NCBI GenBank assembly: GCA_965215605.1
Contig: OZ244070.1
Span: forward strand, 3,552,001 to 3,616,000
Source of the DNA: an uncultured Candidatus Binatia bacterium
GTDB taxonomy: Bacteria > Desulfobacterota > Binatia > UBA9968 > JAJDTQ01
Direction: 5' to 3'
DNA length: 64,000 bases
In this document: piece by piece, positions 32,707 to 50,034 of the stretch
Numbering within the stretch: the stretch's first letter is position 1
Layout of the letters: every line of letters starts with the position of its first letter
The notes under the pieces: generated by a model
The model's database searches: none
What the model was told of the DNA's origin: nothing
What the model saw: only the letters and a program-made list of their open reading frames with translations
Program-made: the position numbers and the translations under genes

Positions 32707-33672
32707 TTGGACATCATGAAATCCGCCGATTTCGTCGAGGCCCGGCGGAGGCTCGAGGCCAAGCCCCAATCCACCGGTGAAAAGCTCACCACCCTGGCAC
32801 AGGCCGTGCAGAGGGTCCGGGATGGCGACCACATCGCCATCGGAGGGTGTCTCTTTTCACGCAGCCCGCTGGCGGCGTTGATGGAGGTGCTGCGCCAGCA
32901 CAGGCGCGGCCTGACCCTGTCGCGCAACCTGATGTGCTACGAGGGCGAGTTGTTCATGGCCGCCAAGGCGGTGGATGGGCTCATGACGAGCTGGTTCGAC
33001 ATCGCGCTGCCCTGGGGCCTCTCCATCAAGCTCCGGGAGGAAGTGGAAGGCGGGCGCATCCGGTTCGAGGAGTGGAGCCATCTCGGGCTCGGGCTCCGTT
33101 ACCGCGCCGGCGCCATGGGCGTTCCGTTCCTGCCCACCCTGACCATGCTCGGCTCGGACCTGATGGGCGTCACCGACACCCGCACCATGGAGTGCCCGTT
33201 CACGGGGGAGCAGCTTTGCCTGGTGCCGGCCCTGTTCCCCGAGGTGGCGCTGATCCACGTGCACCGTGCCGACCGTTTCGGCAACTGTCAGATCGACGGC
33301 TACCCGCACATGGACACGGACATTGCCAAGGCCGCCGCTACGGTCATCGTCACCGCCGAGGAGATCATCGACGAGGAGGAGGTCCGCCGCCGGCCGGACC
33401 GCACGGTCATTCCGGGGCTTGTGGTGGACGCGGTAGTGGAGATGCCCTACGGCTCTTTCCCGCACGAGTGCTACGGCTTGTACGAAGCCGACTTCGCCCA
33501 TTTCGAGGCCTACACGGATGCCGTCAAGGCCAGGGGTACCGGCGCCATCAACGATTACCTCGACCGCCATGTCTACGGGGTCTCGGGGCACGAGGGCTAC
33601 TTGGCGCTGTTCGGCGAAGAGGCGCTGGCGCGGCAGAGACGGCGCGCCGAAGAGCTGCTGGGGCCGCGATGA
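32707..33672 (+). CDS. Family I CoA-transferase subunit A (GctA/CatI-like)
   Basis: FEEWSH, RYRAGAMGVPFLP, CPFTG, HVHRADRFGN. Start TTG 32707 or ATG 32716. Confidence 0.88.
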   Translation: MDIMKSADFVEARRRLEAKPQSTGEKLTTLAQAVQRVRDGDHIAIGGCLFSRSPLAALMEVLRQHRRGLTLSRNLMCYEGELFMAAKAVDGLMTSWFDIALPWGLSIKLREEVEGGRIRFEEWSHLGLGLRYRAGAMGVPFLPTLTMLGSDLMGVTDTRTMECPFTGEQLCLVPALFPEVALIHVHRADRFGNCQIDGYPHMDTDIAKAAATVIVTAEEIIDEEEVRRRPDRTVIPGLVVDAVVEMPYGSFPHECYGLYEADFAHFEAYTDAVKARGTGAINDYLDRHVYGVSGHEGYLALFGEEALARQRRRAEELLGPR

Positions 33673-34430
33673 GCTACTCCGCCACCGAGCTGTTGGCCGT
33701 GGTCGCCGCCCGCCAACTCGCGGGGGTGACCTCCGTGTTCGCCGGGGTGGGCGTGCCGCTGGTGTCCGCGGTGCTGGCGCAGAAGACCGGCGCCCCCGAC
33801 CTCGTCATCGTGGTGGAAGGCGGCAGCATGGGACCTCAGATGGTGCCGGGACGGTTGCCGTACTCCACCAACGAGATGCGCACCGCGCCCAGGGCTCAGA
33901 TGCTGCCGGGCATCACCGACACGTTCCTGTTCGCCCAGCGGGGCTTTCTCGACGTGGGGTTCGTCGGCGGCGCCCAGATCGACTGTCACGGGAACCTCAA
34001 CTCGAGCGTGATCGGCAGCTACGAGCGGCCCAAGGTCCGGTTGCCGGGGAGCGGCGGCGCCAACGACATCATCTCGCTGTGCCGCAAGGTCATGGTGGTG
34101 ACCATGCACGAACGGCGGCGTTTCGTGCCTCGGGTGGATTTCGTCACCAGTCCGGGATTTCTGGCGGGCGGAGACGCGCGCCGCAAGGCGGGGCTGCTGT
34201 TCGGCACCGTCAGCCGCATCGTGACCCATCTGGGCACGCTGGCCTTCGACGACGAGACCCGGCGGTTGCGGCTGGAGAGCCTCCACCCGGGCGTCACCGT
34301 CCAGGAGGTGCTGGACAACACCGGGTTCGAGCTGCCGGTGCCTGACCATCTGCCGGTCACCGAGCCGCCCAGCGAAGAGGAGTTGGAGACCTTGCGGCGC
34401 ATCGACCCGGAGAGGAACTTTCTCGGGTAG
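33669..34430 (+). CDS. Family I CoA-transferase subunit B (GctB/CatJ-like)
   Basis: ATGA overlap; FAGVG, VVEGG (catalytic Glu position), GGAQID..GNLN, RLPGSGGAND, VDFVTSPG. Confidence 0.9.
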   Translation: MSYSATELLAVVAARQLAGVTSVFAGVGVPLVSAVLAQKTGAPDLVIVVEGGSMGPQMVPGRLPYSTNEMRTAPRAQMLPGITDTFLFAQRGFLDVGFVGGAQIDCHGNLNSSVIGSYERPKVRLPGSGGANDIISLCRKVMVVTMHERRRFVPRVDFVTSPGFLAGGDARRKAGLLFGTVSRIVTHLGTLAFDDETRRLRLESLHPGVTVQEVLDNTGFELPVPDHLPVTEPPSEEELETLRRIDPERNFLG

Positions 34431-34465
34431 CGCGAACGCACGGCGCCGCGGACAGGGCGCCGCAG

Positions 34466-34488
34466 GGGGCGGGTTTCAAGCCCGCCCG
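34466..34488 (+). repeat. REP-like palindrome
   Basis: GGGGCGGGTTTCAAGCCCGCCCG, identical to 41943-41965. Confidence 0.65.
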
Positions 34489-34517
34489 GGTCTGAAACAT
34501 CGACGGAGCCGTAACTC

Positions 34518-35459
34518 ATGCCGGTACAGTTTGGAGTCGCCATTCGCAATTTCGTCGGTCCGGGGGAGACCCCGGACGTGGACGGGCTGATACGTTATTC
34601 CCGGCGCGCCGAGGAGTTGGGCTTCGAGTCGCTCTGGGCGTGGGACCACATCCTGCTGGGGGTGGAGCCGAGCTTCCCGGTGCTGGACTCGCTGACCATC
34701 CTTACCGCCATCGCCGTCCGCACCGAACACATTCGGCTGGGCACCGGGGTGATGGTGCTGCCGCTGCGCAACCCGGTGGTGACCGCCAAGGTCCTGGCCA
34801 GTCTGGACCAGATCTCCAACGGCCGCCTGCTGCTTGGGGCTGCCTCCGGCTGGTACGCCCGGGAGTTCGACGCGGTGGGCATCTCCTTCAAGGACCGCGG
34901 CCGCATCTTCGAGCGCAACCTCGATCTGCTGGTGCGGCTCTGGACCGAGGACAGGGTGACCGAGCAGGTGGACGAGTTGAACCTCCGGTCGGCGGTGCTT
35001 CTGCCCAAGCCGGTGCAGAAGCCTCATCCCCCCATCCTGATCGGCGGGTACATCGACCGGGTGCTGCGCCGGGCGGGCCGCAAGGGGGACGGCTGGCTCA
35101 CCTACTTCTACACTCCGGAGGGCTTTTCCAAGAGCTGGGCCAAGGTCCTGGACGCGGCGGAAAAGGCCGGCCGCGATCCGTCGAAGCTCACGGCCACGAA
35201 CCAGCTCGCCATCTACGTGGGCCCCTCCAGGGAGGAGGCCGACGAACCCATGCGCCACTGGCTCACCACCGAGTGGGACATCGCGAAATGGAGTGATTCC
35301 ACCATCGACCACGCCATTCGCGGGACCGCCGACGAGTGCGCGGAGCAGCTCCAGGCCCATGTGGACGCCGGTGTTCACCGGATCATCCTGATCCCCTACC
35401 GGTACCAGCCGGAGCAACTGGAAAGGATCGCCTCGGAAGTGATTCCCAGGTTGACCTGA
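34518..35459 (+). CDS. LLM-class oxidoreductase, possibly F420-dependent
   Basis: GFESLWAWDH, RLGTGVMVLPLRNP, LDQISNGR, EFDAVG, PKPVQKPHPPILIGG. Confidence 0.88.
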   Translation: MPVQFGVAIRNFVGPGETPDVDGLIRYSRRAEELGFESLWAWDHILLGVEPSFPVLDSLTILTAIAVRTEHIRLGTGVMVLPLRNPVVTAKVLASLDQISNGRLLLGAASGWYAREFDAVGISFKDRGRIFERNLDLLVRLWTEDRVTEQVDELNLRSAVLLPKPVQKPHPPILIGGYIDRVLRRAGRKGDGWLTYFYTPEGFSKSWAKVLDAAEKAGRDPSKLTATNQLAIYVGPSREEADEPMRHWLTTEWDIAKWSDSTIDHAIRGTADECAEQLQAHVDAGVHRIILIPYRYQPEQLERIASEVIPRLT

Positions 35460-35484
35460 AAGCCTGCGGAGGGGGAGAGAGCCC

Positions 35485-36384
35485 ATGCGGTTTGACTATT
35501 TCGAGCCGACGACACTGGATGAGGCCGGCGAGTTGCTGCGGAAAGGGAAGGGCGCCCGCAGACCGCTTGCCGGCGGCACCGACATCGTCATACAGTTGCG
35601 CCGGCGGGTGGTCAGCACGCAGGGCCTGGTGAACCTGAAGCGGATACCGGAGCTTTGGGGCTGGGCGCGGGAACCCGGCGAGGGGCTCTGGCTCGGCGCC
35701 TGCACGCCCATGCGGGACCTGGAGACCGCCGCCGCCGTGGGCGAGCGTTTTCCTTCCATCACCGAGGCGCTTCGGGTGGTGGGGTCGCTGCAGTTGAGAA
35801 ACATCGCCAGCGTGGGCGGCAATCTGTGCAATGCTTCGCCGTCGGCGGACACGGCGCCGCCGCTGGTGGCGTTGGGGGCGACGGCCAGTGTGCATACCGC
35901 TGAATCCCGGCGGGAAACGGTGCGGGTGGAGAATTTCTTCGAGGGGCCCGGCACATCGGTGCTGGGCGCCGGCGGACTGCTCCTGGCGGTGGAAGTGCCC
36001 GAGCCGTTGCCGCACGCCGGCGACGCCTTCGAGCGCTTCACCCCGCGGTCGGCCATGGACATTGCCATCGCCAGCGCGGCCGCGGCGGTGACGCTGGACG
36101 CGGCCGGGGAGAAGGTGGCGACGGCGCGGATCGCGCTGGGCGCGGTGGCGCCCACGCCCGTGCGGGCTCTCAGGGCCGAGGAGTTCGTGCAGGGCAAGGA
36201 GTTGACGCCCGAGGTCCTGGAGCGGGCGGGCCGGGCGGCCATGGGTGAATGCCGGCCCATCGACGACATCCGCGGGTCGGCGGCCTACCGCAAGGAGCTG
36301 GTGGGCATTCTCGTGCGACGCGTGTTGCGGCAGGCAGCGGAGCGGGCCCGGGCGCGCTCCAACGGCGGGACGGAAACGGTATGA
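35485..36384 (+). CDS. Molybdenum hydroxylase FAD subunit (CoxM/NdhF-like)
   Basis: LAGGTD, RNIASVGGNLCNASPSAD, DDIRGSAAYR; no 4Fe-4S Cys insert. Confidence 0.92.
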   Translation: MRFDYFEPTTLDEAGELLRKGKGARRPLAGGTDIVIQLRRRVVSTQGLVNLKRIPELWGWAREPGEGLWLGACTPMRDLETAAAVGERFPSITEALRVVGSLQLRNIASVGGNLCNASPSADTAPPLVALGATASVHTAESRRETVRVENFFEGPGTSVLGAGGLLLAVEVPEPLPHAGDAFERFTPRSAMDIAIASAAAAVTLDAAGEKVATARIALGAVAPTPVRALRAEEFVQGKELTPEVLERAGRAAMGECRPIDDIRGSAAYRKELVGILVRRVLRQAAERARARSNGGTETV

Positions 36385-36860
36385 AACAGCGCTATGTTCT
36401 GCGGGTGAACGGCGCCGCCAGGGAAGCGGAAGCCGAGCCTCACGAGTCGCTGCTGGACGTGCTGCGGGAGAACCTTCGGCTGACCGGCAGCAAGAAGGGC
36501 TGCAACGAGGCCGAATGCGGCTCGTGCACGGTGCTGCTGAACGGCCGCCCGGTGGTGTCCTGCCTGGTGCTGGTTCCGGACGCCGTGGGCCGGGACATCG
36601 TCACCATTGAAGCCCTGGCCGAAGACGGGACTCCCCACCCGGTGCAACGGCAGATGGTGGAACAGGGCGGCGTCCAGTGCGGCTACTGCACTCCCGGAAT
36701 GATCATGAGCGCCTACGCGCTGCTCCAGGAGAATCCGCATCCCACCGACGAGGAGATCCGCTTCGCCATTTCCGGCAACATCTGCCGCTGTACGGGGTAC
36801 GGCAAGATCGTCAAGGCGGTCCGGGCGGCCGCGGAAGAGCTCGGGGGGGCGGCGTCATGA
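36381..36860 (+). CDS. Molybdenum hydroxylase 2x[2Fe-2S] subunit (CoxS/NdhS-like)
   Basis: GCNEAECGSC...SC and QCGYCTPG...CRCTGY; ATGA overlap. Confidence 0.94.
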   Translation: MKQRYVLRVNGAAREAEAEPHESLLDVLRENLRLTGSKKGCNEAECGSCTVLLNGRPVVSCLVLVPDAVGRDIVTIEALAEDGTPHPVQRQMVEQGGVQCGYCTPGMIMSAYALLQENPHPTDEEIRFAISGNICRCTGYGKIVKAVRAAAEELGGAAS

Positions 36861-38164
36861 GCGAAGACACCTCCCGGGACACGGCCGGCGCGTACCAGTG
36901 GATAGGAACGAACGTCACCAAGCCGGATGCGCTGGAAAAGGCGCTGGGGGCCACCGAGTACGTCGGCGACATGGTGATGCCGGGCATGCTCCACGCCAAG
37001 ATCCTGTGGGCGGGAATGCCCCACGGGGTGATCCGGAACATCGACACCGGAGAGGCCGCCCGGGTGCCCGGCGTGGCGGCGGTGGTCACCGCTTCGGACG
37101 TGCCCGGCACCAACCGTTACGGACTGGCCGTGCCGGACCAGCGGGCGCTGGCCGACGACAAGGTGCGGTCGGCGGGCGACGCGCTGGCACTGGTGGCGGC
37201 GGAGGACGAGGCGGCGGCGGAGGAGGCGGTGGCCAGGATCAAGGTGGACATCGAGCCGTTGCGTCCCATTCTTACCTACGAGGACGCGCTGGATCCGGAT
37301 GCGCCCGCGATCCACGAAGGCGGCAACGTGTTCCAGCACACCACCGTGCGCAAGGGCGATCTGGAACAGGGCATCCAGGAGTCCGACGTGATCGTGGAGG
37401 ACGCCTACCATACCCATCGCATGGATCACGTCCCCATGGAGCCGGAGGCGGGCCTGGCCTACGTCGATCCCTCCGGCGTTCTGAACATCCTGGTGGGGAC
37501 CCAGTATCCCTATCGGGACCGGCGTCAGATCGCCCCGGCCCTGGACCTGGCCATGAACAAGGTACGGGTGATCCAGGCCCCCATCGGCGGCGGCTTCGGA
37601 CGCAAGGACGACATCACGGCGGAGATCCACGTGGGCCTGCTGGCGCTGAAGACGCGCCGGCCGGTGCGCCTGGTCTACACCCGGGAAGAGTCTCTCATCG
37701 CCAACACCAAGCGCCATCCCATGGCCATGAGCTTCCGCACCGGCGCCCGCAAGGACGGACGGCTGACCTTCCTGGACGGCGACATCTACGGCGACACGGG
37801 CGCGGGGGTTTCCCTCGGCGCCTACGTCATCAAGAAGGCGGGCATCCACGCCACCGGCCCCTACGACGTGCCCAACATCCGGGTGGACACCTACACGCTC
37901 TACACCAACAATCTCGTCTCCGGGGCCATGCGCGGCTTCGGGGTGATGCAGGCGGCAGTGGCCCACGAGTCGCAGATGGACCAGTTGGCCCACCGGCTCG
38001 GAATGTCGCCGCTGGAGTTCCGGATCAAGAACTGCCTCAAGCCGGGGCTCGCCGCCTCCACCGGACAGTTGATGAACGAGGGCTGCGGCATCGAGGCGAC
38101 GCTGCAGCGGATCAAGGACTACATGAGCGCGCACGACCTGCGCTTCAAGCGGCCTCAAGCATGA
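36857..38164 (+). CDS. Molybdenum hydroxylase Mo subunit, N-terminal half (NdhL-like)
   Basis: PMEPE, GTQYP, IGGGFGRK, TKRHP, AMRGFG, HESQMD; ATGA overlap. Confidence 0.9.
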   Translation: MSEDTSRDTAGAYQWIGTNVTKPDALEKALGATEYVGDMVMPGMLHAKILWAGMPHGVIRNIDTGEAARVPGVAAVVTASDVPGTNRYGLAVPDQRALADDKVRSAGDALALVAAEDEAAAEEAVARIKVDIEPLRPILTYEDALDPDAPAIHEGGNVFQHTTVRKGDLEQGIQESDVIVEDAYHTHRMDHVPMEPEAGLAYVDPSGVLNILVGTQYPYRDRRQIAPALDLAMNKVRVIQAPIGGGFGRKDDITAEIHVGLLALKTRRPVRLVYTREESLIANTKRHPMAMSFRTGARKDGRLTFLDGDIYGDTGAGVSLGAYVIKKAGIHATGPYDVPNIRVDTYTLYTNNLVSGAMRGFGVMQAAVAHESQMDQLAHRLGMSPLEFRIKNCLKPGLAASTGQLMNEGCGIEATLQRIKDYMSAHDLRFKRPQA

Positions 38165-38184: not shown

Positions 38185-39198
38185 ATGGCAACAAGAAAAG
38201 GCTTGGGCATCGGCTCCATGTACTACGGCATCGGCTACGGCTTCAGCCGCGCCGACATCGGCTCGGCCGAGATCGAGATGGCCGAGGACGGCACCACCAC
38301 GATCTACTCGGGCGCATGCGACATGGGCCAGGGGGTCATGACGGTGGTGACCCAGGTCGCCGCGGAGGAGCTCGGCATCGAGCCCGACCAGATCCGCGTG
38401 GTGGCCGCCGATACCGGCAGTACGCCGGACGCCGGGCCCACCTCGGGCAGCCGCGCCACTTTCGTGCAGGGCGTGGCGGTGCAGAACGCGGCCCAGGAGT
38501 TGCGCGGGCAGATCCTGGACATGGCCTCGCGCATGCTGGAGTGTCCGAGGGAGAACCTGCACGTGCGGCGGGGCGAGGTGTGCGAGGCCGGCACCGACCG
38601 GCCGCTGGTGTCGGTGGGCAAGGTGGCGCATCAACTCCATTTCCATGGGCGGCGGGCGGCGGCCTGGGGCTGGCACGACAACACCACCGCGGACGTGGAC
38701 CCGGAGACCTCTCAGGGCGACGCCTACGCCACCTACGGCTGGGCCACGCAGTTGGCCGAGGTGGAGGTGGACACCGAGACCGGCCGCATCCGGCTGACCA
38801 AGCTGGTGTCGGCCACCGACGCCGGCAAGGCCATCAACCCGGTGGCGGTGGAGGGGCAGATCGAGGGCGGCGCCGCCATGGGCCTGGGCTACGGCCTCTA
38901 CGAGCAGCACATCCTGGAGAACGGCGTGCCGCGCACGGCATCCCTGGCATTCTATCTCGTGCCCACGTCCATGGACGTGCCGGACATCGAGTGCGAGATC
39001 GTGGAGGTGCCCGATCCCAAGGGGCCGTTCGGCGCCAAGGGCGTGGCCGAGCCGGCCACCATTCCCACGACGCCGGCCATCCTCAACGCCATCTACGACG
39101 CCATCGGCATTCGCATCACCGAGACTCCCATCACGCCGGAACGGGTCTTCTTCGCCATCCAGGAGGCCAGGGCCCGGGGCGAGTTCGAAGAAGACTGA
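38185..39198 (+). CDS. Molybdenum hydroxylase Mo subunit, C-terminal half (NdhM-like)
   Basis: RKGLGIGSMYYGIG start, DMGQG, TSGSRAT, EGQIEGG, GPFGAKGVAEP (catalytic Glu). Confidence 0.9.
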   Translation: MATRKGLGIGSMYYGIGYGFSRADIGSAEIEMAEDGTTTIYSGACDMGQGVMTVVTQVAAEELGIEPDQIRVVAADTGSTPDAGPTSGSRATFVQGVAVQNAAQELRGQILDMASRMLECPRENLHVRRGEVCEAGTDRPLVSVGKVAHQLHFHGRRAAAWGWHDNTTADVDPETSQGDAYATYGWATQLAEVEVDTETGRIRLTKLVSATDAGKAINPVAVEGQIEGGAAMGLGYGLYEQHILENGVPRTASLAFYLVPTSMDVPDIECEIVEVPDPKGPFGAKGVAEPATIPTTPAILNAIYDAIGIRITETPITPERVFFAIQEARARGEFEED

Positions 39199-39213: not shown

Positions 39214-39903
39214 TTGGGTCATCGCGTCGGACTGCTTGTCCCTTCGTCGAACACCGTCATGGAGGTGGATTTCTACCGCCATCTGCCGGCGTCGGCCACG
39301 GTCCACACCGGCCGGATGTACATGGAAGCCACCACGGTCAAGGGCGAGGAAGAGATGCTCGACGAGCACTGCCTGCCGGCGGCCGCCGACGTGGCCACCG
39401 CCAGGCCGGACCTGATGGTGTTCGGCTGCACCAGCGCGGGGGCGCTGCGGGGCAATGCCTACGACGCCGATCTGTGCCGCCGCATCTCCGACGTCGCCGG
39501 CGCGCCCACCGTCAGCGTCATCGAATCGGTGCGGCGCAAGCTCGCGTCGCTGAAGGTCAAGCGGGTGGCGGTGCTGACACCCTATATCGAAGACCTCAAC
39601 GTCCGCATCAAAGCCAGCGTGGAGGATGACGGCCTTGAGGTGGCATCGATCCACGGCATGGGGATCAGCGTCAACTTCAACCTGGCGCTGGTGGAGCCGC
39701 CGGAGATACTGGCCTTCGCCCGGGAGAAGCTGGGCGCCCGGCCGCAAGTGGACGCCCTGTTCATTTCGTGCACCAACTACCAGGCGGTGGCGACACTGCC
39801 GGAATTGAAGAAGCTGTACGACATGCCCATCGTCACCAGCAACCAGGCCGCCCTCGAAGCCGTGGGCCGGCAACTGGACGTGGGGTTGGTGGACATGGGT
39901 TGA
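39214..39903 (+). CDS. Maleate cis-trans isomerase / Asp-Glu racemase family protein
   Basis: GLLVPSSNTVME, FGCTS and ISCTN (two-Cys dyad), VTSNQA; TTG start after GGAGG. Confidence 0.88.
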   Translation: MGHRVGLLVPSSNTVMEVDFYRHLPASATVHTGRMYMEATTVKGEEEMLDEHCLPAAADVATARPDLMVFGCTSAGALRGNAYDADLCRRISDVAGAPTVSVIESVRRKLASLKVKRVAVLTPYIEDLNVRIKASVEDDGLEVASIHGMGISVNFNLALVEPPEILAFAREKLGARPQVDALFISCTNYQAVATLPELKKLYDMPIVTSNQAALEAVGRQLDVGLVDMG

Positions 39904-39915: not shown

Positions 39916-40788
39916 ATGGAATTCATGAAACTCGACGGCGCCGTGGACCTGCACGTGCACTCCTATCCGTGCGTGTTCCAGCGGCGGGTGGATGACCGGG
40001 AGGCGGTCAAAGCCGCCTCGGACGCGGGCATGGCGGCCATCGTGCTGAAGTGCCACCACGAGAGCACGGTGAGCCGCGCGTATCTCATTCAGAAGGAGTT
40101 TCCCGACATCAAGGTGTTCGGCGGCGTGGTGATGAACCAGTTCGTGGGCGGCATCAACCCGGCGGCGGCGGAGGTGGGGCTCCGGCTCGGCGCCAAGGAG
40201 ATCTGGATGCCCACCATCGACGCGGCCCATCACGTGGAAATCCACGGCGCCCGGGGCAGCTACGACACCCAGACCAGCGGCTCGGACTTCGTCTGGGGCG
40301 ACCCCATCTCCGCGGTCAAGGACGGCAAGGTGGTGGACGAGGCCCTGGTGGTGCTGGAGCTCGTCGCCAAGTACGACGCCATCCTGGGGACCGCGCACCT
40401 CTCCCTCGCAGAGATCGAGCTGCTGGTGAAGGCGGCCCACGAGCGGGGGGTGAAGAAGATCCTGATCACCCACCCGTATTTCCGGGTGCCCGCGGGCATG
40501 AACCTGGACTTCCTGAAGCAGATGATGCGCTACGGCGCCATCGGCGAGTTCGGTTACTGCACCATCTCGCCCATGTGGGCGTACGTGAACCTGGAGTTCA
40601 CCAAGGGCATCATGGACTCCATGGGTTTCGACAACTGCGTGGTCATGAGCGACACCGGCCAGTCCCACAACCCGCTGCCGCCGGAGGCGTTGTGGCTCTA
40701 TGCCCAGGGGCTCTACGAAAAGGGAGTCTCGCCCAGGAACGTGGAGAAGCTCATCGTCGACAACCCTCGGGCGATGCTTGGCATCTGA
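39916..40788 (+). CDS. Metal-dependent amidohydrolase-fold protein (DUF6282-like)
   Basis: DLHVH, VLKCH, GGINP, WMPT, TAHL, THP, SDTGQ motifs. Confidence 0.8.
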   Translation: MEFMKLDGAVDLHVHSYPCVFQRRVDDREAVKAASDAGMAAIVLKCHHESTVSRAYLIQKEFPDIKVFGGVVMNQFVGGINPAAAEVGLRLGAKEIWMPTIDAAHHVEIHGARGSYDTQTSGSDFVWGDPISAVKDGKVVDEALVVLELVAKYDAILGTAHLSLAEIELLVKAAHERGVKKILITHPYFRVPAGMNLDFLKQMMRYGAIGEFGYCTISPMWAYVNLEFTKGIMDSMGFDNCVVMSDTGQSHNPLPPEALWLYAQGLYEKGVSPRNVEKLIVDNPRAMLGI

Positions 40789-40823
40789 CGGGCTACGGAA
40801 AGAGACGGGCGGAAAGGACGGCC

Positions 40824-41942: not shown

Positions 41943-41965
41943 GGGGCGGGTTTCAAGCCCGCCCG
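41943..41965 (+). repeat. REP-like palindrome
   Basis: GGGGCGGGTTTCAAGCCCGCCCG, identical to 34466-34488. Confidence 0.65.
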
Positions 41966-43231: not shown

Positions 43232-43291
43232 TGGGCGGAAGATGGGTGGCGCAACCGGGAACGAGAACGAATGGGAGGCAAGGAGAATCGA

Positions 43292-44659
43292 GTGCCACAG
43301 GATCTACAGAGTTTCTTGAAGCGATTGAAGGAGGAATGCCCCGAGCAGTTCCTCGAGGTGGACGAGCCGGTGTCCCGGGAGTTCGAGGCCACGGCCCTGG
43401 TCATGGAGGCGGAGCGGCTGCCGTCCTGCCCGGCGGTGATGTTCCGGAACATCACCGGGAGCGAGTTCACCATGGCGGCCAACGTGCTGGCCCACCGTCC
43501 GCGTCTGGCCTGGGCCTTCGGGACGTCGGAGGAGGGGCTGGTGCACGAGTTCAAGGAGCGCATCCAGAGGCCCATGTCCCCCGAGGTGTCCAAGGATGCC
43601 CCCTTCCGGGACAATACCCTGCGGGAGGCGGCGGTGGATCTGGGACAGCTCCCCATTCTGACCCATTTCGAGCAGGACGGCGGCCCCTACGTGACCGCCG
43701 GGCTGTTGGTGGCGCGGGATCCGCAATCCGGCATGAGCACGGTGGGTTTTCATCGCATGCAGCTCAAGGGGCCGCGCAAGCTCGGAGTCAGCCTGCACTC
43801 CCGGCGCCGCATGTTCGAGTACTTCCGGCGCGCCGAGGAAAAGGGCGAGTCCCTGGAAGCCGCGGTATGCATCGGCGTGCACCCGCTGATCTCCCTGGGC
43901 GCCTTGACGTTACCGCCGGCCGGGGTCGAGAAATTTGCGCTCCAGGGAGGGCTCCTGGGCGAGCCTTTGGAGTTGACGCCCTGCGCCACCGTGGACGTCG
44001 ACGTGCCCCGGTGGTCGGAGATCGTCATCGAGGGACGGATCCTCAAGGACGTGCGGGAGAAGGAAGGGCCGTTCGGCGAGTTTACGGGGTACGCTTCGAG
44101 CCGGAGCACGGAGAACGTCTTCGAGGCCACCGCACTGCACTACCGCAACGGCGCCGTCTACCAGGACATCAACGGCGGCGACAGCATGGAGCATTGCCGC
44201 TGTCTCTCCATGCCCCGTGAGGTGGAGTTCACCAACGTGCTGGGCAAGACCATACCCAACCTCAAGGCGGTGCACGTGCCGGTGCGCTCGGGCATCGGCA
44301 GCTTCCACTGCTACGTGTCCCTGCGCAAGACCGCCGAGGGGCAGGGGAAGCAGGCCATCTTCAGCGTCCTGGGCGCCGACCACTACGTCAAGCTGGTGGT
44401 GGTGGTGGACGACGACATCGACATCTTCGACGAGGAGCAGGTGCTGTGGGCCATCGCCACCCGGATGCAGGCCAACAGGGACGTCTTCATCATCGACGAG
44501 GCCATGGGAACGCTGCTGGACCCGTCGGCCACTGACGCCGTCACGGCGAAGATGGGCATCGACGCCACCAAGCCCCTGGGCGAGTACGCCTCGACCCTTT
44601 CCATCGAGCCGGGCGCGGTGGAGCGGGCGCGCCGGCTCATGAGCAAGCTGACCGGTTGA
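43292..44659 (+). CDS. UbiD family protein, paralog 3 (atypical metal-ligand residues)
   Basis: DGGPYVTAG, EGPFGEFTGY, VDDDID...WAIATRMQ, LDPS, KMGIDAT; GTG 43292 after AAGGAG. Confidence 0.92.
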   Translation: MPQDLQSFLKRLKEECPEQFLEVDEPVSREFEATALVMEAERLPSCPAVMFRNITGSEFTMAANVLAHRPRLAWAFGTSEEGLVHEFKERIQRPMSPEVSKDAPFRDNTLREAAVDLGQLPILTHFEQDGGPYVTAGLLVARDPQSGMSTVGFHRMQLKGPRKLGVSLHSRRRMFEYFRRAEEKGESLEAAVCIGVHPLISLGALTLPPAGVEKFALQGGLLGEPLELTPCATVDVDVPRWSEIVIEGRILKDVREKEGPFGEFTGYASSRSTENVFEATALHYRNGAVYQDINGGDSMEHCRCLSMPREVEFTNVLGKTIPNLKAVHVPVRSGIGSFHCYVSLRKTAEGQGKQAIFSVLGADHYVKLVVVVDDDIDIFDEEQVLWAIATRMQANRDVFIIDEAMGTLLDPSATDAVTAKMGIDATKPLGEYASTLSIEPGAVERARRLMSKLTG

Positions 44660-44663
44660 CCGC

Positions 44664-46241
44664 ATGGAGAGCTTCCGGACTTTCCTGGACGATTTGCGGA
44701 ACGCCGGCGAACTCGTCGACATCCACAAACCCGTGGATGTCCGGCACATCGCCGCGTTGGTGGACCAGGCGTCCACCGCGCTGTTGTTCCATAGGGTGCG
44801 CGGCTACGAGATGCCCGTGGTCTCGGGGCTCCTGAACGACCGCCGGCGCATTGCCCTGTCGGCTGGTTGCGACTACGCGCAGATGGAGCGGCGGCTCGGC
44901 CACGCCCTCGATCATCCCGTCGATCCCATCGAAGTCGGCGACGGCGGCGCGAGGAGTTGGTATCGGGAAGGGGCCGAGGTGGACCTCTTCGCCCTGCCGG
45001 TGCCGGTGTTCTCCGAGTTCGACGGCGGTCCCACGATTACGGCCGGCGTCACCCTGGCCCACGATCCCGAATACGGACTGAACGCCGGCACCTATCGTTT
45101 CCAGGTAAAGGAACGTGCCCTCACCGGCATCGACATCGTCACCCCCAACAACCTGCGCAGGCTGGCGGAGAAGGCCCTGGCGGCCAACGCGCCGCTGCCC
45201 ATCTCCATCAACATCGGCACCCACCCGGTGGAGCTGATGGCGTCCCTCTACAAGGCGCCCCTGGGGCGGAACGAGCTGGCCATCGCCGGCGGCATGCTGG
45301 GGCGGCCGGTGCGCCTGGGCGCCTGCCGGACCATCGACGCGCCCTGCCTGGCGGACGCGGAGATCGTGCTGGAGGCGGAGATCCTGCCCACCGGCTGGAC
45401 CCGGCAGGAGGGGCGGTTCGGCGAGATGACGCGCCTCATGGGCGACGTGCACTACAATCCTCACGTGCGGGTGAAGGCGATCTCGCGCCGCGAGGACGCC
45501 ATCTACTACGCGCTGCACATGCCCTGGGAGAACATCTGGATCAAGGAGCACGGTTTCCAGGCGGTGCTCAAGCGGGTCCTCGACGCGGCCGGGGTGACGG
45601 TGACCGCGGTGAACGTCACGCCGGGAGGCTGCTGCCACTGGCACGCCGTCATCGCCATCCGGAAGCAGCCCGGCGATCCTCAGAACGCCATCATGGCGGC
45701 GCTGTCGGTGGCGGACCTCAAGCACGTGGTGGTCGTGGATGACGAGATCGACGTCTACGACGCCATGGAGGTGGAATGGGCCATGGCCACCCGGGTGCAG
45801 GCCGACCGCGACATCACTATCCTCTCGGACGCCCGCTCCAAGCCCCTGGACCCGAGCTTGCCGCTGTCGGAAGGCATCCCCACCACCGCCAAGTGCGGCA
45901 TCGACGCCACCATTCCCGACGGCGTCCCCAAGGCGCGGTATCAGCGCATCACCTATCCCCACGCGGATGAGCTGGACCTCGGCGCCTACCTGGGCGAAGC
46001 GGAGGCCGGCGAGGGGTCGCCCGAGACCCTGGTTGAAGCTGCCAGCGCGAGCGTCGAGGATGCCGCGGCGGCCATACGCGGACTGCTCGCCGCCGGGTCC
46101 ATGTACTTCAGCGAGATCGCGGAAAGCGTTCCGGGAGCCGGTTTCCAGTCCGTCGCCCGGACGATGGGCGAGTTGCACGCCGCCGGAGAGATCGATCAGG
46201 ACGCGGAGGGGCGCTACCGGCTGGCGTCGGAGAGGCGCTGA
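44664..46241 (+). CDS. UbiD family protein, paralog 4, with C-terminal winged-helix-like extension
   Basis: DGGPTITAG, NAGTYR, EGRFGE, VDDEID...WAMATRVQ; extra ~60-aa tail MYFSEIAE...GELHAAGEIDQDAEGRY. Confidence 0.9.
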   Translation: MESFRTFLDDLRNAGELVDIHKPVDVRHIAALVDQASTALLFHRVRGYEMPVVSGLLNDRRRIALSAGCDYAQMERRLGHALDHPVDPIEVGDGGARSWYREGAEVDLFALPVPVFSEFDGGPTITAGVTLAHDPEYGLNAGTYRFQVKERALTGIDIVTPNNLRRLAEKALAANAPLPISINIGTHPVELMASLYKAPLGRNELAIAGGMLGRPVRLGACRTIDAPCLADAEIVLEAEILPTGWTRQEGRFGEMTRLMGDVHYNPHVRVKAISRREDAIYYALHMPWENIWIKEHGFQAVLKRVLDAAGVTVTAVNVTPGGCCHWHAVIAIRKQPGDPQNAIMAALSVADLKHVVVVDDEIDVYDAMEVEWAMATRVQADRDITILSDARSKPLDPSLPLSEGIPTTAKCGIDATIPDGVPKARYQRITYPHADELDLGAYLGEAEAGEGSPETLVEAASASVEDAAAAIRGLLAAGSMYFSEIAESVPGAGFQSVARTMGELHAAGEIDQDAEGRYRLASERR

Positions 46242-46283: not shown

Positions 46284-46312
46284 TTGACAGCGTTCAAGGG
46301 CTGCGATAACAG
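46284..46312 (+). promoter_or_regulatory. Putative promoter TTGACA-N17-TAACAG
   Basis: Read directly upstream of the AAAGGAG RBS of 46339. Confidence 0.45.
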
Positions 46313-46338
46313 CCTTTGGGCCTAAAGGAGAACGCCTG

Positions 46339-47427
46339 ATGCCGACCATCAACGATGCCGACGGCCACATCAACGACTACTTCTTCGGCGACGAGATCGC
46401 CAAGTACATGCCCGAGGGGAACCAGTTCAGCCAGATGTTCCCGGTGTTCGACCACCTGCACTTCCGTTACCTGATGAAGAACCGGGTGCCCAAGTACGTC
46501 GGCGGCAGCATGAAGACCGCGCCGGGTCCCGCGGAGTGGCTGGAGTTCATCGAAGAGACCGGCATCGCCTGGAGCGTGCTCTACCCCAGCGCCGGGCTGG
46601 GGGTGGGGCGCATCGTTTCGGTGGAGTGGGCCATCGCCGCCTGCCGGGCCTACAACAACTGGCTGCACGATCGTTTCACCAGCACCACGCCGCGTCTCAA
46701 GGGCGTCGGCCTCATTCCGATCCAGGACGAAGAGGCCGCGTGCGCCGAGCTGCAGCGCTGCGTGCGGGAGTTGGGCATGGTCGGCGCCATGCTGCCGTCC
46801 AACGGCGAAGCCATCAAGGGGCAACTGGGCGCCAAGGCCTATTGGCCGATCTACGAGGAGGCGGAGAAGCTCGGCTGCTGTCTCACCGTGCACGGCGGCG
46901 CGCACCATCACCTCGGCCTCGACGGCTTCAGCGTGTACTATCCGGTGCACGCCCTCGGCCACCCTTTCGGGATCATGGTGCAGGCGGCGGCGATGCTCAG
47001 CCACGGCATCTTCGAGCGCTTTCCCCGGCTACGGGTGGCATTCCTGGAAGGGGGCGCCACCTGGGTGCCGTTTTTCATGGACCGGCTCGACCGGTCCTAC
47101 AACGAGGGGCATCTGCAGATCGACCTCGCCGGCGACCCGGTCCCAGGCCCCCGGCCGGGCGAGAAGGCCAGCGAGCATTTCAAGCGTCACGTCCGGGAGG
47201 GGAGGATCTTCGTCGGCTTCGATTGCGACGACGCCGGTCTGGCCTTTGCCGTGCAGCAGGCCGGCGCCGAGCCCTTCCTGTTCGCCAGTGACTTCCCGCA
47301 TGAGGTATTCGACGCGGCATCGTGCCGCCACGAGATCGACGAGTTGCTGCAGCGGGACGACCTGACCCAGGATCAGAAAGAGGCGGTGCTGGGCGGGAAC
47401 GCGGCGCGGCTGTACGGTATCGGTTAG
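46339..47427 (+). CDS. Amidohydrolase_2 family protein
   Basis: DADGH, VLYPS, CRAYNNW, TVHGG, AFLEGG, FASDFPH. Confidence 0.87.
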   Translation: MPTINDADGHINDYFFGDEIAKYMPEGNQFSQMFPVFDHLHFRYLMKNRVPKYVGGSMKTAPGPAEWLEFIEETGIAWSVLYPSAGLGVGRIVSVEWAIAACRAYNNWLHDRFTSTTPRLKGVGLIPIQDEEAACAELQRCVRELGMVGAMLPSNGEAIKGQLGAKAYWPIYEEAEKLGCCLTVHGGAHHHLGLDGFSVYYPVHALGHPFGIMVQAAAMLSHGIFERFPRLRVAFLEGGATWVPFFMDRLDRSYNEGHLQIDLAGDPVPGPRPGEKASEHFKRHVREGRIFVGFDCDDAGLAFAVQQAGAEPFLFASDFPHEVFDAASCRHEIDELLQRDDLTQDQKEAVLGGNAARLYGIG

Positions 47428-47518
47428 GCAAATTCTTCTCCATGTCGCCGGAGGCCAAGAAGGGGCTGGGCGTTCTCGTGCGGAAGAAGAAAAAGTAGGA
47501 AACGGGTACCACGCGATC

Positions 47519-48511
47519 ATGCTGTTTCTCACGGAAGAAGACGTTCTCCGGGCGGTGGAAGGCCGAAACGCGTACGGAGAGGCGGTGGCGGTCATCGAGG
47601 AGGTGCTGCGCCAGCAGTCCGAGGGCAGCACGTTTCATCTCAAGCGCCTGACCATGGAGCACCCCGATCACCCGGGTCATCTCTGGCACAACATCCGCAT
47701 CCTGCCGGGCATGGTGCCGGAACTCGGTTACGCGGCGGTGCGGGTCTACTCGGGATACCAGGGGACCAACCGGTCCGAGGTCATCTGTCTGTTCAATTGG
47801 GAAGACATGGAGATGTCGGCCATCATTTCCGACTATCATCTGCACGCCATCCGCACCGCGTCTCCTTACGGCGTGGCGGCCAAGTACCTGTCGCGCGCGG
47901 ATGCGCAGACCCTGGGGGTCATCGGCACCGGACGCTACGCCAAGGGCTTCGTCCAGGCCTGCTGCGCGGTGCGCGACATCCGGCACGTCAAGGCGTATAG
48001 CCGCAACGCGGAGAACCGGCGGCGGTTCCGTGAAGAGATGACGGAGGTTCTGGGCATCGAGGTGGTGGCGGTGGAGTCCGGCCGGGAAGCCGTCCGGGAC
48101 ACGGACATCATGTTGCTGGCGACCTCCGGCAACACCATCGTGTTCGAGGGCGGCTGGCTGGAGCCGGGGACGCTGGTCATGTCCCTGGCTCCCGGGGAGT
48201 TCGACGAAGCCACGGCGCTGGGCTCGCGTGTGTTCCTCTCCGGCACCGACCAAGTGCTCGGCGACAGCCCGCCCCGGAAACCGTTTCCGTCGCTGCTTGC
48301 CAGCGGCAAGTTCAGCAAGGACGACGTGGCGGCGGAGTTCTGCGATGTGGTGTCCGGGAAGATGCCAGGTCGCGGAAGCGATGACGAGATCATCCTCTAC
48401 GAGTCTCCGGGCATGGGCATCCTCGACGTAGGCATCGCTGGCTGGGTCTACCGGCTGGCCCGGGAAAAGGGGTTGGGCACCGATCTGCCCTTTGGGGAAG
48501 AACCCGGGTAG
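47519..48511 (+). CDS. Ornithine cyclodeaminase / mu-crystallin (imine reductase) family protein
   Basis: IRTAS, GVIGTG, LATSG, PGE, GR..DEI..YESPGMGILD. Confidence 0.85.
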   Translation: MLFLTEEDVLRAVEGRNAYGEAVAVIEEVLRQQSEGSTFHLKRLTMEHPDHPGHLWHNIRILPGMVPELGYAAVRVYSGYQGTNRSEVICLFNWEDMEMSAIISDYHLHAIRTASPYGVAAKYLSRADAQTLGVIGTGRYAKGFVQACCAVRDIRHVKAYSRNAENRRRFREEMTEVLGIEVVAVESGREAVRDTDIMLLATSGNTIVFEGGWLEPGTLVMSLAPGEFDEATALGSRVFLSGTDQVLGDSPPRKPFPSLLASGKFSKDDVAAEFCDVVSGKMPGRGSDDEIILYESPGMGILDVGIAGWVYRLAREKGLGTDLPFGEEPG

Positions 48512-48546
48512 GGACGAGTTCAGGGTTTCCCCAACGGTGAGGTGAA

Positions 48547-50034
48547 ATGCGCACATTGATTCGCGGCGGCTGGATCGTCGGCTACCAAGGCGAGACCCAC
48601 GCGCTGCTGCGCGATGGCGTGGTGGTGTTCGAGGACGGGCGCATCCTGCACGTGGGCGCTGATTTTGAAGGGAACGTGGACCGGGAGATGGACGCCGACG
48701 GGATGTTGGTGGCGCCGGGTTTCATCGACATGCACGTCCACGGCGGCCACCGGGCTTCACACCGGCTGATCACGGACACCGGGCGGCCGGATTACTTCGG
48801 CCAGCCGTTCCTGGAGATCAGCGTGCCGCGGGAAGGGACCCGGCCGGCGGGCGATCCCCGCTACATGAGGCCCGACCAGGCCGGCGCCACCGAAGGCACG
48901 GACCTGCACGCCACCTTCACCGTGGCCGAGCTCTTGCGCAACGGCGTCACCACGTTCATGGAGATCGGCAGCCAGCTCCGGGTTCAGGAAGGGTTGCTCA
49001 AGGAGGTCGACCGGCTCGGCGCCCGCGCCTACCTGGGCCCCGGCTTCGACTCGGGCCGCTGGGTGGCGGACGAAAAGGGCCGGCTCAAGCGCGCGCTGGA
49101 CGAGGCCGCGGGCTGGCGTGAGTTCGAGGGCGCGGTGGAGTTCATCAAGCGGGTGGAAGGCAGTTGCGGCGACCGGGTCCGGGGCATCCTGATACCGCGG
49201 GAGGCCGAGACCTGCACGTTGGATCTCCTGAGGGCGACGCGTAAGGCAGCCGGCGATCTCAAGGTGCCGATATCGACCCACGCCGCCTACAACATCATCG
49301 AGTTCTACGAGCTCGTGACGGAACATCGCATGACCCCGGTGGAGTTGCTGGAGTCGGTGGGCCTTCTGGGCCCCGACCTCACCATCGGACACGGGAACCT
49401 GGTGGCCGAGAACCCCCAGTTGAACTTCGCGGGGGGCCGGGACGTGGATCTCATGGGCGAATACGGCGTGTCCATCTCCCACTGTCCGGTCAACATTGCC
49501 CGCCGGGGCCGTTGCCTCGACTCCTGGGAGCGGTACCGCAAGGCCGGCGTCAACATCGCCTTGGGGAGCGACACCTACCCGCGGGACTTCATGATGCAGA
49601 TGCGGGTGGCCTCGTACTTCGGCAAGGTCATCGGACACAACCTGCGCGCGGCCACGGCCGCCGAGGTGTTCGAGGCCGCCACCCTGGGCGGCGCCAGGGC
49701 CTTGGGGCGGGACGACCTCGGGCGGCTGGCGCCGGGAGCGCGCGCGGACATCATCATCGTCGACATTTCCGGAAGGGGCACGCTCAGGTACGGGCCGGTG
49801 CGCGATCCCATCAAGAGCCTGGTGGAATGCGGCATCGGCGACGATGTCCGCACGGTCATCGTCGACGGCGAGGTGCGGATGGAGGAGGGGCGGATTCCCG
49901 GAGTGGATATCGAGTCCCTGCGGCGGCAGGCACAGGAGGCCGCGGAGTTCGCCTGGGACCGCCTCCAGGACTGGGACGCGCTGGGGCGGAGCGCGGAGGA
50001 GATGAGCCCCTGGTCCTTCCCGTTGATGAAGTGA
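48547..50034 (+). CDS. Chlorohydrolase/deaminase-like amidohydrolase (AtzA/TrzA family)
   Basis: PGFIDMHVH, LLRNGVTT, STHAA, ISHCP, ALGSD, ATLGGARALG, GARADI. Confidence 0.87.
   Translation: MRTLIRGGWIVGYQGETHALLRDGVVVFEDGRILHVGADFEGNVDREMDADGMLVAPGFIDMHVHGGHRASHRLITDTGRPDYFGQPFLEISVPREGTRPAGDPRYMRPDQAGATEGTDLHATFTVAELLRNGVTTFMEIGSQLRVQEGLLKEVDRLGARAYLGPGFDSGRWVADEKGRLKRALDEAAGWREFEGAVEFIKRVEGSCGDRVRGILIPREAETCTLDLLRATRKAAGDLKVPISTHAAYNIIEFYELVTEHRMTPVELLESVGLLGPDLTIGHGNLVAENPQLNFAGGRDVDLMGEYGVSISHCPVNIARRGRCLDSWERYRKAGVNIALGSDTYPRDFMMQMRVASYFGKVIGHNLRAATAAEVFEAATLGGARALGRDDLGRLAPGARADIIIVDISGRGTLRYGPVRDPIKSLVECGIGDDVRTVIVDGEVRMEEGRIPGVDIESLRRQAQEAAEFAWDRLQDWDALGRSAEEMSPWSFPLMK

Follow-up and report, generated by a model that had tools for sequence, protein, structure and literature searches.

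A run of 16 genes, all on the plus strand, occupies positions 32707 to 50034 of a 64,000-nucleotide (nt) stretch of contig OZ244070.1 from an uncultured Candidatus Binatia bacterium (hereafter the window, about 66% G+C). It encodes a two-subunit CoA-transferase, a luciferase-like (LLM) oxidoreductase, a four-subunit molybdenum (Mo) hydroxylase, a racemase-like protein, a DUF6282 protein, two fold-II pyridoxal-phosphate (PLP) enzymes that are CysK-like and ThrC-like, two UbiD-family proteins and, at its end, three further proteins abbreviated Amido2, OCD and ChlH (Table 1). An earlier note, made from the sequence alone, had listed these 16 same-strand genes as one cluster with a candidate pathway for an N-heteroaromatic or aromatic carboxylate, and its gene labels were matched by Pfam and NCBIfam. 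The raw lists of open reading frames (ORFs) of the window were full of shadow frames; coding frames were picked by third-position GC, which amounts to 0.79-0.93 in them, and then checked with Pfam and NCBIfam. This check placed CoA-transferase subunit B and the CysK-like gene in frames other than those of the mechanically listed ORFs (33518-34345 and 40700-41809, respectively). Four of the 15 junctions exceed 39 nt, namely CoA-transferase B/LLM (87 nt), CysK/ThrC (137 nt), UbiD2/Amido2 (97 nt) and Amido2/OCD (91 nt), and the remaining ones span -4 to 39 nt.

Table 1. Features of the gene run in the window, with the matches on which each label is based.
Feature	Positions	Strand	Evidence
CoA-transferase subunit A, family I glutaconate type	32707..33672	+	PF01144 97.9 bits; best solved relative GctA 1poi_A, 139 bits
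CoA-transferase subunit B	33669..34430	+	PF01144 88.2 bits; 4-nt overlap with subunit A stop; GctB 1poi_B 150 bits
Perfect hairpin GGGCGGG-TTTCAAG-CCCGCCC	34467..34487	none	inside 87-nt gap
LLM oxidoreductase, F420 class by model	34518..35459	+	PF00296 200 bits; TIGR03619 205.5 bits, cut-off 166.9
Mo-hydroxylase FAD subunit	35485..36384	+	PF00941, PF03450; E. coli XdhB 31% identity
Mo-hydroxylase 2x[2Fe-2S] subunit	36381..36860	+	PF01799, PF00111; ATGA-overlap start; translation MKQRY...; E. coli XdhC 44% identity
Mo-hydroxylase large subunit, N-terminal half	36857..38164	+	PF01315, PF02738; NdhL 3hrd_A 387 bits
Mo-hydroxylase large subunit, C-terminal half, separate gene	38185..39198	+	PF20256 256 bits
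Asp/Glu-racemase-superfamily protein (Pfam 'Amdase'), two conserved Cys	39214..39903	+	PF17645 85.8 bits
DUF6282, putative metal-dependent ring-opening hydrolase	39916..40788	+	PF19799 222.5 bits
CysK-like fold-II PLP enzyme, altered substrate loop	40824..41858	+	cysK model TIGR01139 357.6 bits, cut-off 350.95
Second hairpin copy	41944..41964	none	inside 137-nt CysK/ThrC gap
ThrC-like fold-II PLP enzyme	41996..43231	+	PF00291 262 bits; TIGR00260 183.9 bits
UbiD-family (de)carboxylase 1 (UbiD1)	43271..44659	+	UbiD_N, UbiD, UbiD_C domains; PtHmfF 6h6v 299 bits
UbiD-family (de)carboxylase 2 (UbiD2), longer C-terminus	44664..46241	+	6h6v 274 bits; 31% identity to UbiD1
Promoter/operator-like motif TTGACAGC-N-GGGCTGCGATAACAGCC	46284..46314	+	cross-locus comparison
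Amidohydrolase_2, ACMSD-type decarboxylase/hydratase family (Amido2)	46339..47427	+	PF04909 95.9 bits; best solved relatives ~81 bits
Ornithine cyclodeaminase / mu-crystallin family (OCD)	47519..48511	+	PF02423 148.5 bits; all NCBIfam equivalogs below cut-off
Chlorohydrolase-family amidohydrolase (ChlH), PRK06151 type	48547..50034	+	NF004801 562.7 bits, cut-off 416

Eighty loci were fetched around relatives of the DUF6282 protein, with up to 10 kb on each side, and searched with all window proteins (tblastn, E<=1e-10, coverage >=50%). By the identity of their DUF6282 protein to that of the window they were divided into groups A (94-98%, n=21), B (80-83%, n=7), C (64-70%, n=5) and D (47-55%, n=47). 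Group A is labelled Candidatus Binatia in 15 of 21 cases and otherwise Thermodesulfobacteriota, Deltaproteobacteria or Syntrophobacterales. Group B comprises Dehalococcoidia, Anaerolineae and others, group C consists of Chloroflexi, and group D is mainly composed of Actinomycetota with some Bacillota and Chloroflexota. The position of the cluster is constant in group A, after mutL-miaA and before EamA-pheA, the closest loci being L005, L012 and L018.

The N-terminal half of the Mo-hydroxylase large subunit was found in 20/21, 5/7, 4/5 and 34/47 loci of groups A to D, the racemase-like gene in 20/21, 6/7, 4/5 and 35/47, and any fold-II PLP gene in 21/21, 7/7, 4/5 and 25/47. In the same order, the counts were 18/21, 3/7, 0/5 and 25/47 for CoA-transferase A, 19/21, 3/7, 0/5 and 26/47 for CoA-transferase B, 20/21, 4/7, 0/5 and 19/47 for LLM, 21/21, 7/7, 1/5 and 11/47 for the CysK-like gene, and 20/21, 7/7, 4/5 and 13/47 for the ThrC-like gene. 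UbiD1 was present in 18/21, 4/7, 0/5 and 2/47 loci, Amido2 in 12/21, 0/7, 0/5 and 1/47, OCD in 16/21, 0/7, 0/5 and 0/47, and ChlH in 10/21, 0/7, 0/5 and 0/47; outside group A, an incomplete copy of OCD was seen at the end of L023 (group B). Only 25 of the 47 group-D loci reach a length of 18 kb or more, so that absences in this group are partly due to contig ends.

Besides DUF6282, the core of the locus comprises the Mo-hydroxylase with its four subunits, the GctAB-type CoA-transferase, the F420-type LLM, the racemase-like protein with two Cys and both fold-II PLP enzymes. It accompanies DUF6282 in loci that carry the labels Binatia, Dehalococcoidia, Chloroflexota, Actinomycetota or Bacillota, and the tightest linkage across loci is that of the racemase-like gene with DUF6282. 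The synteny search proposed in the earlier note is thus positive for a core. The core recurs beside DUF6282 proteins only 47-83% identical to that of the window, where four-fold degenerate sites are saturated (32-47% identity), and at the level of sequence comparison its grouping exceeds what chance would leave together at such synonymous divergence. Between the window and L032, for instance, DUF6282 is 98%, CoA-transferase A 91% and MiaA 66% identical, and four-fold sites are 35-51% identical in all genes compared (45% in DUF6282). With L019, L023 and L024, which belong to other phyla, the corresponding values for DUF6282 are 80-82% in protein and 32-42% at four-fold sites. Among Binatia-like genomes DUF6282 remains 96-98% identical where MiaA is 66-88% identical, the cluster proteins being far better kept than the flanks. 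The synonymous divergence of the cluster genes follows that of miaA in each Binatia-like locus, which speaks for vertical inheritance with strong purifying selection and against a recent transfer. In a plasmid collection, DUF6282 paralogues were only 31-35% identical and lay in unrelated contexts.

The end of the run is less constant. In group A, loci L003, L009, L013, L014 and L016 are devoid of one or more of UbiD2, Amido2, OCD and ChlH, and the last three genes are variable and nearly confined to the Binatia-like group, so that the single 17-kb unit first proposed did not hold. In the window and 12 loci of group A, the motif TTGACAGC-N-GGGCTGCGATAACAGCC is located about 30 nt before the start of Amido2; in L003, which has neither UbiD2 nor Amido2, it directly precedes OCD. 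This placement supports the last three genes as a unit of their own, and the internal promoter suspected at 46284 coincides with a motif conserved in 13 of 21 Binatia-like loci. A generic scan for sigma-70 promoters and terminators found a single promoter-like site where 1.5 were expected, and it was not at 46284. As parts of the reading given below, and with the same probability as the whole of it, unit 1 would extend from 32707 to ~41858, perhaps to 46241, as an operon kept across phyla, and unit 2 (46339-50034) would be an accessory module with a putative promoter of its own, largely restricted to the Binatia-like lineage. Deamination, decarboxylation or reduction of related compounds are possible roles of this tail module.

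Upstream of the tail module, L015 (~16429-16520) and L002 (~16723-16810) have another conserved non-coding element. It starts with a TTGAC...GATAAT-like sequence, after which comes a G+C-rich stretch that seems to be structured. The window lacks a counterpart, and the L015 copy matched nothing in Rfam. An Rfam scan of the window and four loci found no riboswitch. Apart from Amido2 (46339-47427), the window contains two other Amidohydrolase_2 genes (6231-7370 and 7306-8448).

A 21-nt hairpin with a 7-bp G+C stem and a 7-nt loop is present in two identical copies in the window, both of them in the core gaps of greatest length; none is expected by chance. L005 and L018 have a near-identical copy at the position of the first one (34467), and L012 has a variant there. 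The second copy is an insertion in the source genome, because the CysK/ThrC gap that holds it measures only 10-24 nt in five relatives (L005, L012, L018, L015 and L013). A conserved operator at 34467 and 41944 was considered and rejected, as no exact copy was found in the 80 loci and the second one was inserted; the sequence resembles a small REP-like element or an RNA hairpin. The same pair of PLP genes is separated in L017 by a minus-strand gene of ~2.4 kb (12002-14449), which encodes 815 amino acids (aa) with a He_PIG Ig-like domain. By coordinates, the same opposite-strand insertion is present in L006, ThrC being shifted by ~2.5 kb in both loci.

The four adjacent Mo-hydroxylase genes correspond to the four-subunit, nicotinate dehydrogenase (NDH)-type form of the xanthine dehydrogenase (XDH) family. 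The large subunit is divided into two genes at the same domain border as NdhL/M, and the best solved relative of its N-terminal half is NdhL of Eubacterium barkeri nicotinate dehydrogenase, the next structure following at 201 bits. In NCBIfam, this half reached 407 bits with the pucD model and 390 bits with the Se-dependent XDH model, both below cut-off, and no NDH model was among the matches. The large subunit is 30-35% identical to E. coli XdhA and XdhD. Purine hydroxylase models thus match the Mo-enzyme as well as nicotinate dehydrogenase does. In L023 (group B), GrdB-like and glycine/sarcosine/betaine-reductase component B-like genes together with NMT1/SsuA-like binding proteins are found just upstream of the Mo-hydroxylase genes (2716-5368).

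In the nicotinate route, nicotinate dehydrogenase gives the 6-hydroxy acid, a reductase gives the tetrahydro-oxo acid and an enamidase opens the ring; the E. barkeri cluster encodes NdhFSLM, 6-hydroxynicotinate reductase and enamidase. The window shares with this fermentation the four-subunit Mo-hydroxylase, its divided large subunit and the order of hydroxylation, reduction and hydrolytic opening, and glutaconate CoA-transferase is the nearest match of its CoA-transferase. A route of the E. barkeri or Azorhizobium type for a pyridine monocarboxylate (nicotinate or picolinate) could be envisaged, in which DUF6282 would be the enamidase equivalent and the CoA-transferase would take a glutarate-type product. 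However, the 54 window ORFs scanned contain no enamidase, no B12-dependent 2-methyleneglutarate mutase, no dimethylmalate enzymes and no glutaryl-CoA dehydrogenase, and PLP enzymes, LLM, UbiDs and the CoA-transferase itself come in addition to the E. barkeri set. Such a route leaves the conserved fold-II PLP enzymes and the YgeX-type lyase of relatives without a role, the purine-type models score equally high for the Mo subunit, and the PucR regulators and NCS1 permeases of relatives suggest nucleobase-like compounds. It is regarded as unlikely.

The racemase-like protein reaches only 52-61 bits with structures of arylmalonate decarboxylase (AMDase) and maleate isomerase. C72 is kept in 42 of 43 relatives and C186 in 43 of 43; from the family they are presumed to be the catalytic positions, and the two-Cys arrangement is taken as the pattern of two-base racemases and isomerases and not of AMDase. 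The latter has a single catalytic Cys and a Gly at the second position, and this assignment was rejected as both Cys positions are occupied and NF052327 gives 87 bits against a cut-off of 225. A maleate cis-trans isomerase (NicE/MaiA) would have the two Cys, but the match is limited to 52-57 bits and the partners of the maleamate pathway are absent: neither ring-cleavage dioxygenase nor maleamate amidase families were found in the window, and NicX/NicD/NicF-type partners are missing.

DUF6282 itself has five invariant residues in 21 sequences (H13, H15, H161, H186 and D246). No relative was detected among solved structures at E<=0.01, and sub-threshold domain matches of the 21 members were to PHP (19), TatD (3), Amidohydro_2 (2) and PTE (2). 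In the same way, weak PTE/TatD leads (0.82) were given by the Atlas for the homologue P0016. The invariant HxH, the two further His and the Asp, together with these sub-threshold similarities, suggest a metal-dependent barrel hydrolase. The family is large, with 1742 clusters at 50% identity (E<=1e-10). Hydantoin racemase with hydantoinase and allantoin racemase with allantoinase are known pairs, and the window resembles them in that a two-Cys protein of the Asp/Glu/hydantoin-racemase superfamily adjoins a putative metal-dependent cyclic-amide hydrolase. It differs in that DUF6282 is outside the classical cyclic amidohydrolases, with no solved relative, and the racemase-like protein belongs to the Pfam Amdase family. 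DUF6282 was also found fused behind a complete thiamine-diphosphate enzyme (P0173, 883 aa) and as a tandem duplication (P0125, 723 aa). Genes of thiamine-diphosphate enzymes are close to DUF6282 in three group-D loci and may lead to a later 2-oxo-acid step.

CoA-transferase B has kept Glu50: its IVVEGG aligns with IIVESG of GctB, while AibB-type decarboxylase chains have N or S there. This residue is taken to be the catalytic Glu of family I CoA-transferases. With PF01144 on both genes and Glu at the catalytic position of B, the pair belongs to the glutaconate type of family I, and an AibAB- or IpdAB-like non-transferase role was set aside in view of the conserved Glu. The CoA-transferase co-occurs with LLM across loci. 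In addition, a family III CoA-transferase is found near the clusters of L028 and L029, and a gene of the benzoate-CoA-ligase family (663 bits, cut-off 375) near that of L033.

Three types of reductase accompany the core. LLM, whose F420 class is assigned by model only, is present in 43 loci; a second LLM gene is located in the window at 296-1417. A DHO_dh-Fer4 protein is encoded in the five Bacillota-type loci L033, L036, L071, L078 and L080, directly before DUF6282 and, where the racemase-like gene is present, directly after it; it scores 297.7 bits with the PreA model (cut-off 335). In the five Chloroflexia-type loci L028-L030, L034 and L051, an FAD_binding_2 flavoprotein similar to fumarate reductase and L-aspartate oxidase lies between the racemase-like gene and DUF6282. 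As none of the 80 loci holds two types, they are read here as three occupants of one putative pathway slot, filled by non-homologous reductases. A comparable exchange exists in the reductive uric-acid pathway, in which a YgfK or PydA homologue performs the dearomatisation and F420-type luciferase-family genes take the place of the reductase in Chloroflexota clusters (PMC12507026).

The CysK-like protein is close to M. tuberculosis CysK1 (310 bits), and the lysine of its SLKDR aligns with that of CysK1 SVKDR. Its loop reads STGSTG where the three best-matching CysK structures have TSGNTG, a motif that to our knowledge is near-invariant in true CysK, and the change is present in 24 of 24 linked homologues of groups A-C (Binatia-like and Chloroflexi). 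The ThrC-like protein, whose gene follows DUF6282/CysK in groups A-C, passes TIGR00260 (cut-off 167.1) and misses NF006050 (293.4 against 303 bits). Located in the conserved core, both genes, left unexplained in the earlier note, point to an amino-acid intermediate as judged from their families. The Mo-enzyme and DUF6282 genes of L061 (Saccharopolyspora elongata) flank a PLP gene whose product scores above the cut-off of the diaminopropionate ammonia-lyase model (348.7 against 276 bits) and is 36% identical to E. coli YgeX; relatives 51-61% identical to it are present in 11 more group-D loci, 12 in total. The ThrC-like protein of the window lacks this YgeX likeness, with 21% identity over 137 aa.

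These two PLP genes also bear on the idea that the run is no single pathway, and that unrelated operons including housekeeping cysK and thrC have been joined with incidental co-direction. In favour of it, general NCBIfam cut-offs are passed by both proteins, the tail varies in content and is preceded by a promoter-like motif of its own, the opposite-strand gene separates CysK from ThrC in L006 and L017, and the window cluster has neither regulator nor transporter. On the contrary, the linkage of the core extends over several phyla in which synonymous divergence has reached saturation, the loop change is specific to linked CysK copies, and the short CysK/ThrC gap is kept in five loci. An incidental assembly is thus considered highly unlikely.

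The YgeX-type lyase brings the reductive uric-acid pathway of E. coli and Clostridia (XdhD-YgfM, YgfK or UacX, SsnA, HyuA, YgeW/YgeY, YgeX) into the comparison. This pathway is similar in its XDH-family first enzyme, its dearomatisation by a PydA-like enzyme or LLM, its hydrolytic opening and its fold-II PLP lyase at the end (PMC12507026; preprint 10.1101/2025.04.24.650524). The locus might then encode a non-orthologous reductive purine (uric acid or 2,8-dioxopurine) or reductive pyrimidine-type pathway, with an XDH-family enzyme, a reductive dearomatisation, two ring hydrolases and a diaminopropionate ammonia-lyase. The PydA-like reductase of Bacillota relatives with LLM elsewhere, the 12 loci with a YgeX-type lyase, the PucR and NCS1 genes of relatives, the PyrR gene beside the L033 cluster and the membership of ChlH in the same broad chlorohydrolase family as SsnA are in line with it. 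However, E. coli SsnA, HyuA, YgeW and YgfK match none of the 80 loci by tblastn and YgeY matches one (L072, 26%). In blastp, ChlH has no match to E. coli SsnA; it scores ~86 bits with SsnA models whose cut-offs are 444-455 and is 24% identical to GuaD. The window has no homologue of SsnA, HyuA, YgeW, YgeY or YgfK, its hydrolase is DUF6282 and its PLP enzymes are CysK- and ThrC-like, not YgeX-like. It adds the two-Cys racemase-like protein, the CoA-transferase and the UbiD pair, the last two having no place in a purine route, and the TRAP transporters of Bacillota relatives point to a carboxylate. A purine- or pyrimidine-type pathway is held to be rather improbable.

Both UbiDs are closest to 6H6V, a match at the level of the family only; this structure is that of the furandicarboxylate decarboxylase PtHmfF (PMC8988006). 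UbiD1 has orthologues in L023 (73%) and L041 (56%), and UbiD2 in the same loci (55% and 51%), always after a UbiD1-type gene. From these comparisons, the separate orthologues of the two genes, unchanged in order in both loci, suggest a two-subunit enzyme or two successive steps. The pair recurs in fewer lineages than the core. In total, four UbiD-family genes are present in the window (12064-13512, 27505-28959, 43271-44659 and 44664-46241), with 26-31% mutual identity.

In the Trudgill pathway for furoate and 5-hydroxymethylfurfural (hmfABCDE, hmfFG), the steps include CoA activation, a Mo-dependent hydroxylase and ring hydrolysis (PMC3223595), a logic shared with the window, as are the HmfF-type UbiDs. 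A five-membered heteroaromatic acid would then be decarboxylated as a diacid by UbiD, activated with CoA and hydroxylated as acyl-CoA, before an isomerase and lactone or lactam hydrolysis by DUF6282 lead to a 2-oxoglutarate derivative. The scores of both UbiDs with PtHmfF and the joint presence of a CoA step, a Mo-hydroxylase and a hydrolase fit this route, which is nevertheless judged very unlikely. The window has a CoA-transferase instead of a ligase, and its 54 scanned ORFs include no ligase of the HmfD type, no thioesterase of the HmfE type and no UbiX/HmfG (AMP-binding, enoyl-CoA-hydratase-type and flavoprotein families are all absent from them). The PLP enzymes and LLM would remain unexplained, the racemase-like protein would be an addition, and the UbiD pair is absent from most group-D loci. 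Dipicolinic acid, a pyridine dicarboxylate, is in a candidate class for the UbiD pair. A dip-type route was set aside as Moco-independent, since in Alcaligenes faecalis JQ135 it starts with the O2-dependent monooxygenase DipD and does not need the molybdenum cofactor (Moco) (PMC11472048).

The surroundings of the relatives are those of catabolic genes. A PucR-type regulator is found in 21 loci, following DUF6282 in actinomycetes, and an NCS1 permease in 8; Bacillota-type relatives have TRAP transporters and PucR or sigma-54 regulators nearby. With these uptake systems and regulators, a biosynthetic role was rejected. From its sequence the locus appears to parallel nicotinate fermentation, the furoate route and the reductive uric-acid pathway in logic, yet the defining enzymes of each are missing. 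A literature search, with most subscription journals outside its coverage, found no paper naming DUF6282 and none on this gene set, in agreement with the earlier statement that the combination was not recognised as a named pathway.

Taken together, the preferred reading, with a probability of about 0.5, sees the run as a composite locus for the catabolism of an N-heteroaromatic carboxylic acid. That it is a real, conserved and undescribed catabolic cluster for an N-heterocyclic acid, composed of a core and accessory modules, is partly supported. In the proposed sequence, the XDH-family enzyme would hydroxylate a ring carbon beside N to give a lactam or ureide tautomer, and the GctAB-type CoA-transferase would form the CoA thioester of the ring acid. 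The F420-type LLM would then reduce the ring C=C conjugated to the carboxyl, here probably as the CoA ester, a step that would be taken over by the PydA/PreA-like DHO_dh-[4Fe-4S] enzyme in Bacillota and by the fumarate-reductase-like flavoprotein in Chloroflexia. The two-Cys racemase-like protein may equilibrate the new alpha-stereocentre, after which DUF6282, as a metal-dependent TIM-barrel-type hydrolase, would open the ring and free the alpha-amino group. Finally, the CysK-like and ThrC-like enzymes, or a YgeX-type diaminopropionate ammonia-lyase in many actinomycete loci, would remove a beta- or gamma-substituent and the amino group, yielding a 2-oxo acid and ammonia. UbiD1 and UbiD2 might remove a ring carboxylate or introduce one ahead of the core steps and thereby let related acids enter the route. 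Since fold-II PLP lyases need an amino acid with a free alpha-amino group and a leaving group, the most likely substrate has its carboxylate alpha to a ring N, with another heteroatom or a leaving group on the beta or gamma carbon. Carboxylates of the imidazole, pyrazine or pyrimidine type and substituted picolinate or nicotinate are candidates.

Compared with this scheme, the pathway of the earlier note stands in part. Mo-hydroxylation, hydride reduction and hydrolytic opening of the ring without a dioxygenase fit the conserved parts and the interchangeable reductases of other phyla, and a conserved catabolic core is retained. The single unit is given up, an amino-acid stage had not been foreseen, and the ending by a maleate isomerase (NicE) is abandoned on account of the low scores, the missing partners and the pairing of the protein with DUF6282 in relatives.

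Several points weigh against the composite catabolic reading. The loci were chosen through DUF6282, which makes the counts conditional on it, ORF calling in them was crude, and many are short contigs. Every chemical step is deduced from families, conserved residues and linkage. GctAB-type transferases usually use short aliphatic dicarboxylates, so the CoA-transferase may act after ring opening and LLM on another step; as an alternative for the activation and reduction steps, the transferase would handle a ring-opened dicarboxylate. The CysK-like protein passes the cysK model barely, and both it and the ThrC-like protein could, by their scores, be ordinary biosynthetic enzymes. The YgeX-type lyase is limited to group D, where DUF6282 is ~52% identical to that of the window and the substrate may differ. 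Neither a transporter nor a regulator gene was detected within the cluster in the scan of 54 window ORFs, which likewise revealed no UbiX-type prenylated-FMN synthase and no F420 biosynthesis genes.

A bolder reading, possible though doubtful, makes DUF6282 a new family of ring-opening cyclic-amide hydrolases. With its dedicated two-Cys racemase it would stand at the centre of an undescribed route, widespread over at least four phyla, in which Mo-hydroxylation is followed by any of three unrelated reductases and by N release through diverged CysK-, ThrC- or YgeX-type lyases. It includes, with the same reserve, an F420-dependent LLM that acts on a CoA thioester, a reaction type for which no precedent is known. 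The catabolic reading of the locus, if true, would provide a first function and a testable context for DUF6282, and would add to nicotinate fermentation, reductive pyrimidine catabolism and reductive urate catabolism a fourth N-heterocycle route of the 'hydroxylate, reduce, hydrolyse' kind. It would also represent a natural experiment with three unrelated reductases in one pathway slot. Given the unusually strong constraint on the core proteins in Binatia-like genomes, the substrate may be an important C or N source for this uncultured group. The question can be tested directly, since the cultured bacteria Saccharopolyspora elongata 7K502 (L061) and Syntrophaceticus schinkii Sp3 (L071) are carriers.

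Regarding the neighbourhood of the locus, mutL (29870-31738) and miaA (31749-32678) precede it on the same strand and extend the co-directional run to 18 genes; the functional start is placed at 32707 because of synteny. The run is ended by a minus-strand EamA gene (50129-51127), beyond which are located pheA, an aminotransferase gene, tyrA and aroA. The mutL gene and mutS (61786-63999) are on the same strand ~30 kb apart, and the catabolic cluster, this aromatic amino-acid block and then cmk and rpsA lie between them. A TctA transporter gene is present elsewhere in the window on the minus strand (9085-10737). The EamA/DMT transporter, which faces the cluster end, has a weak match to the aromatic amino-acid exporter YddG (70 bits). 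Its position is kept in at least seven Binatia-like loci, and it is the sole transporter adjoining the cluster in that lineage.

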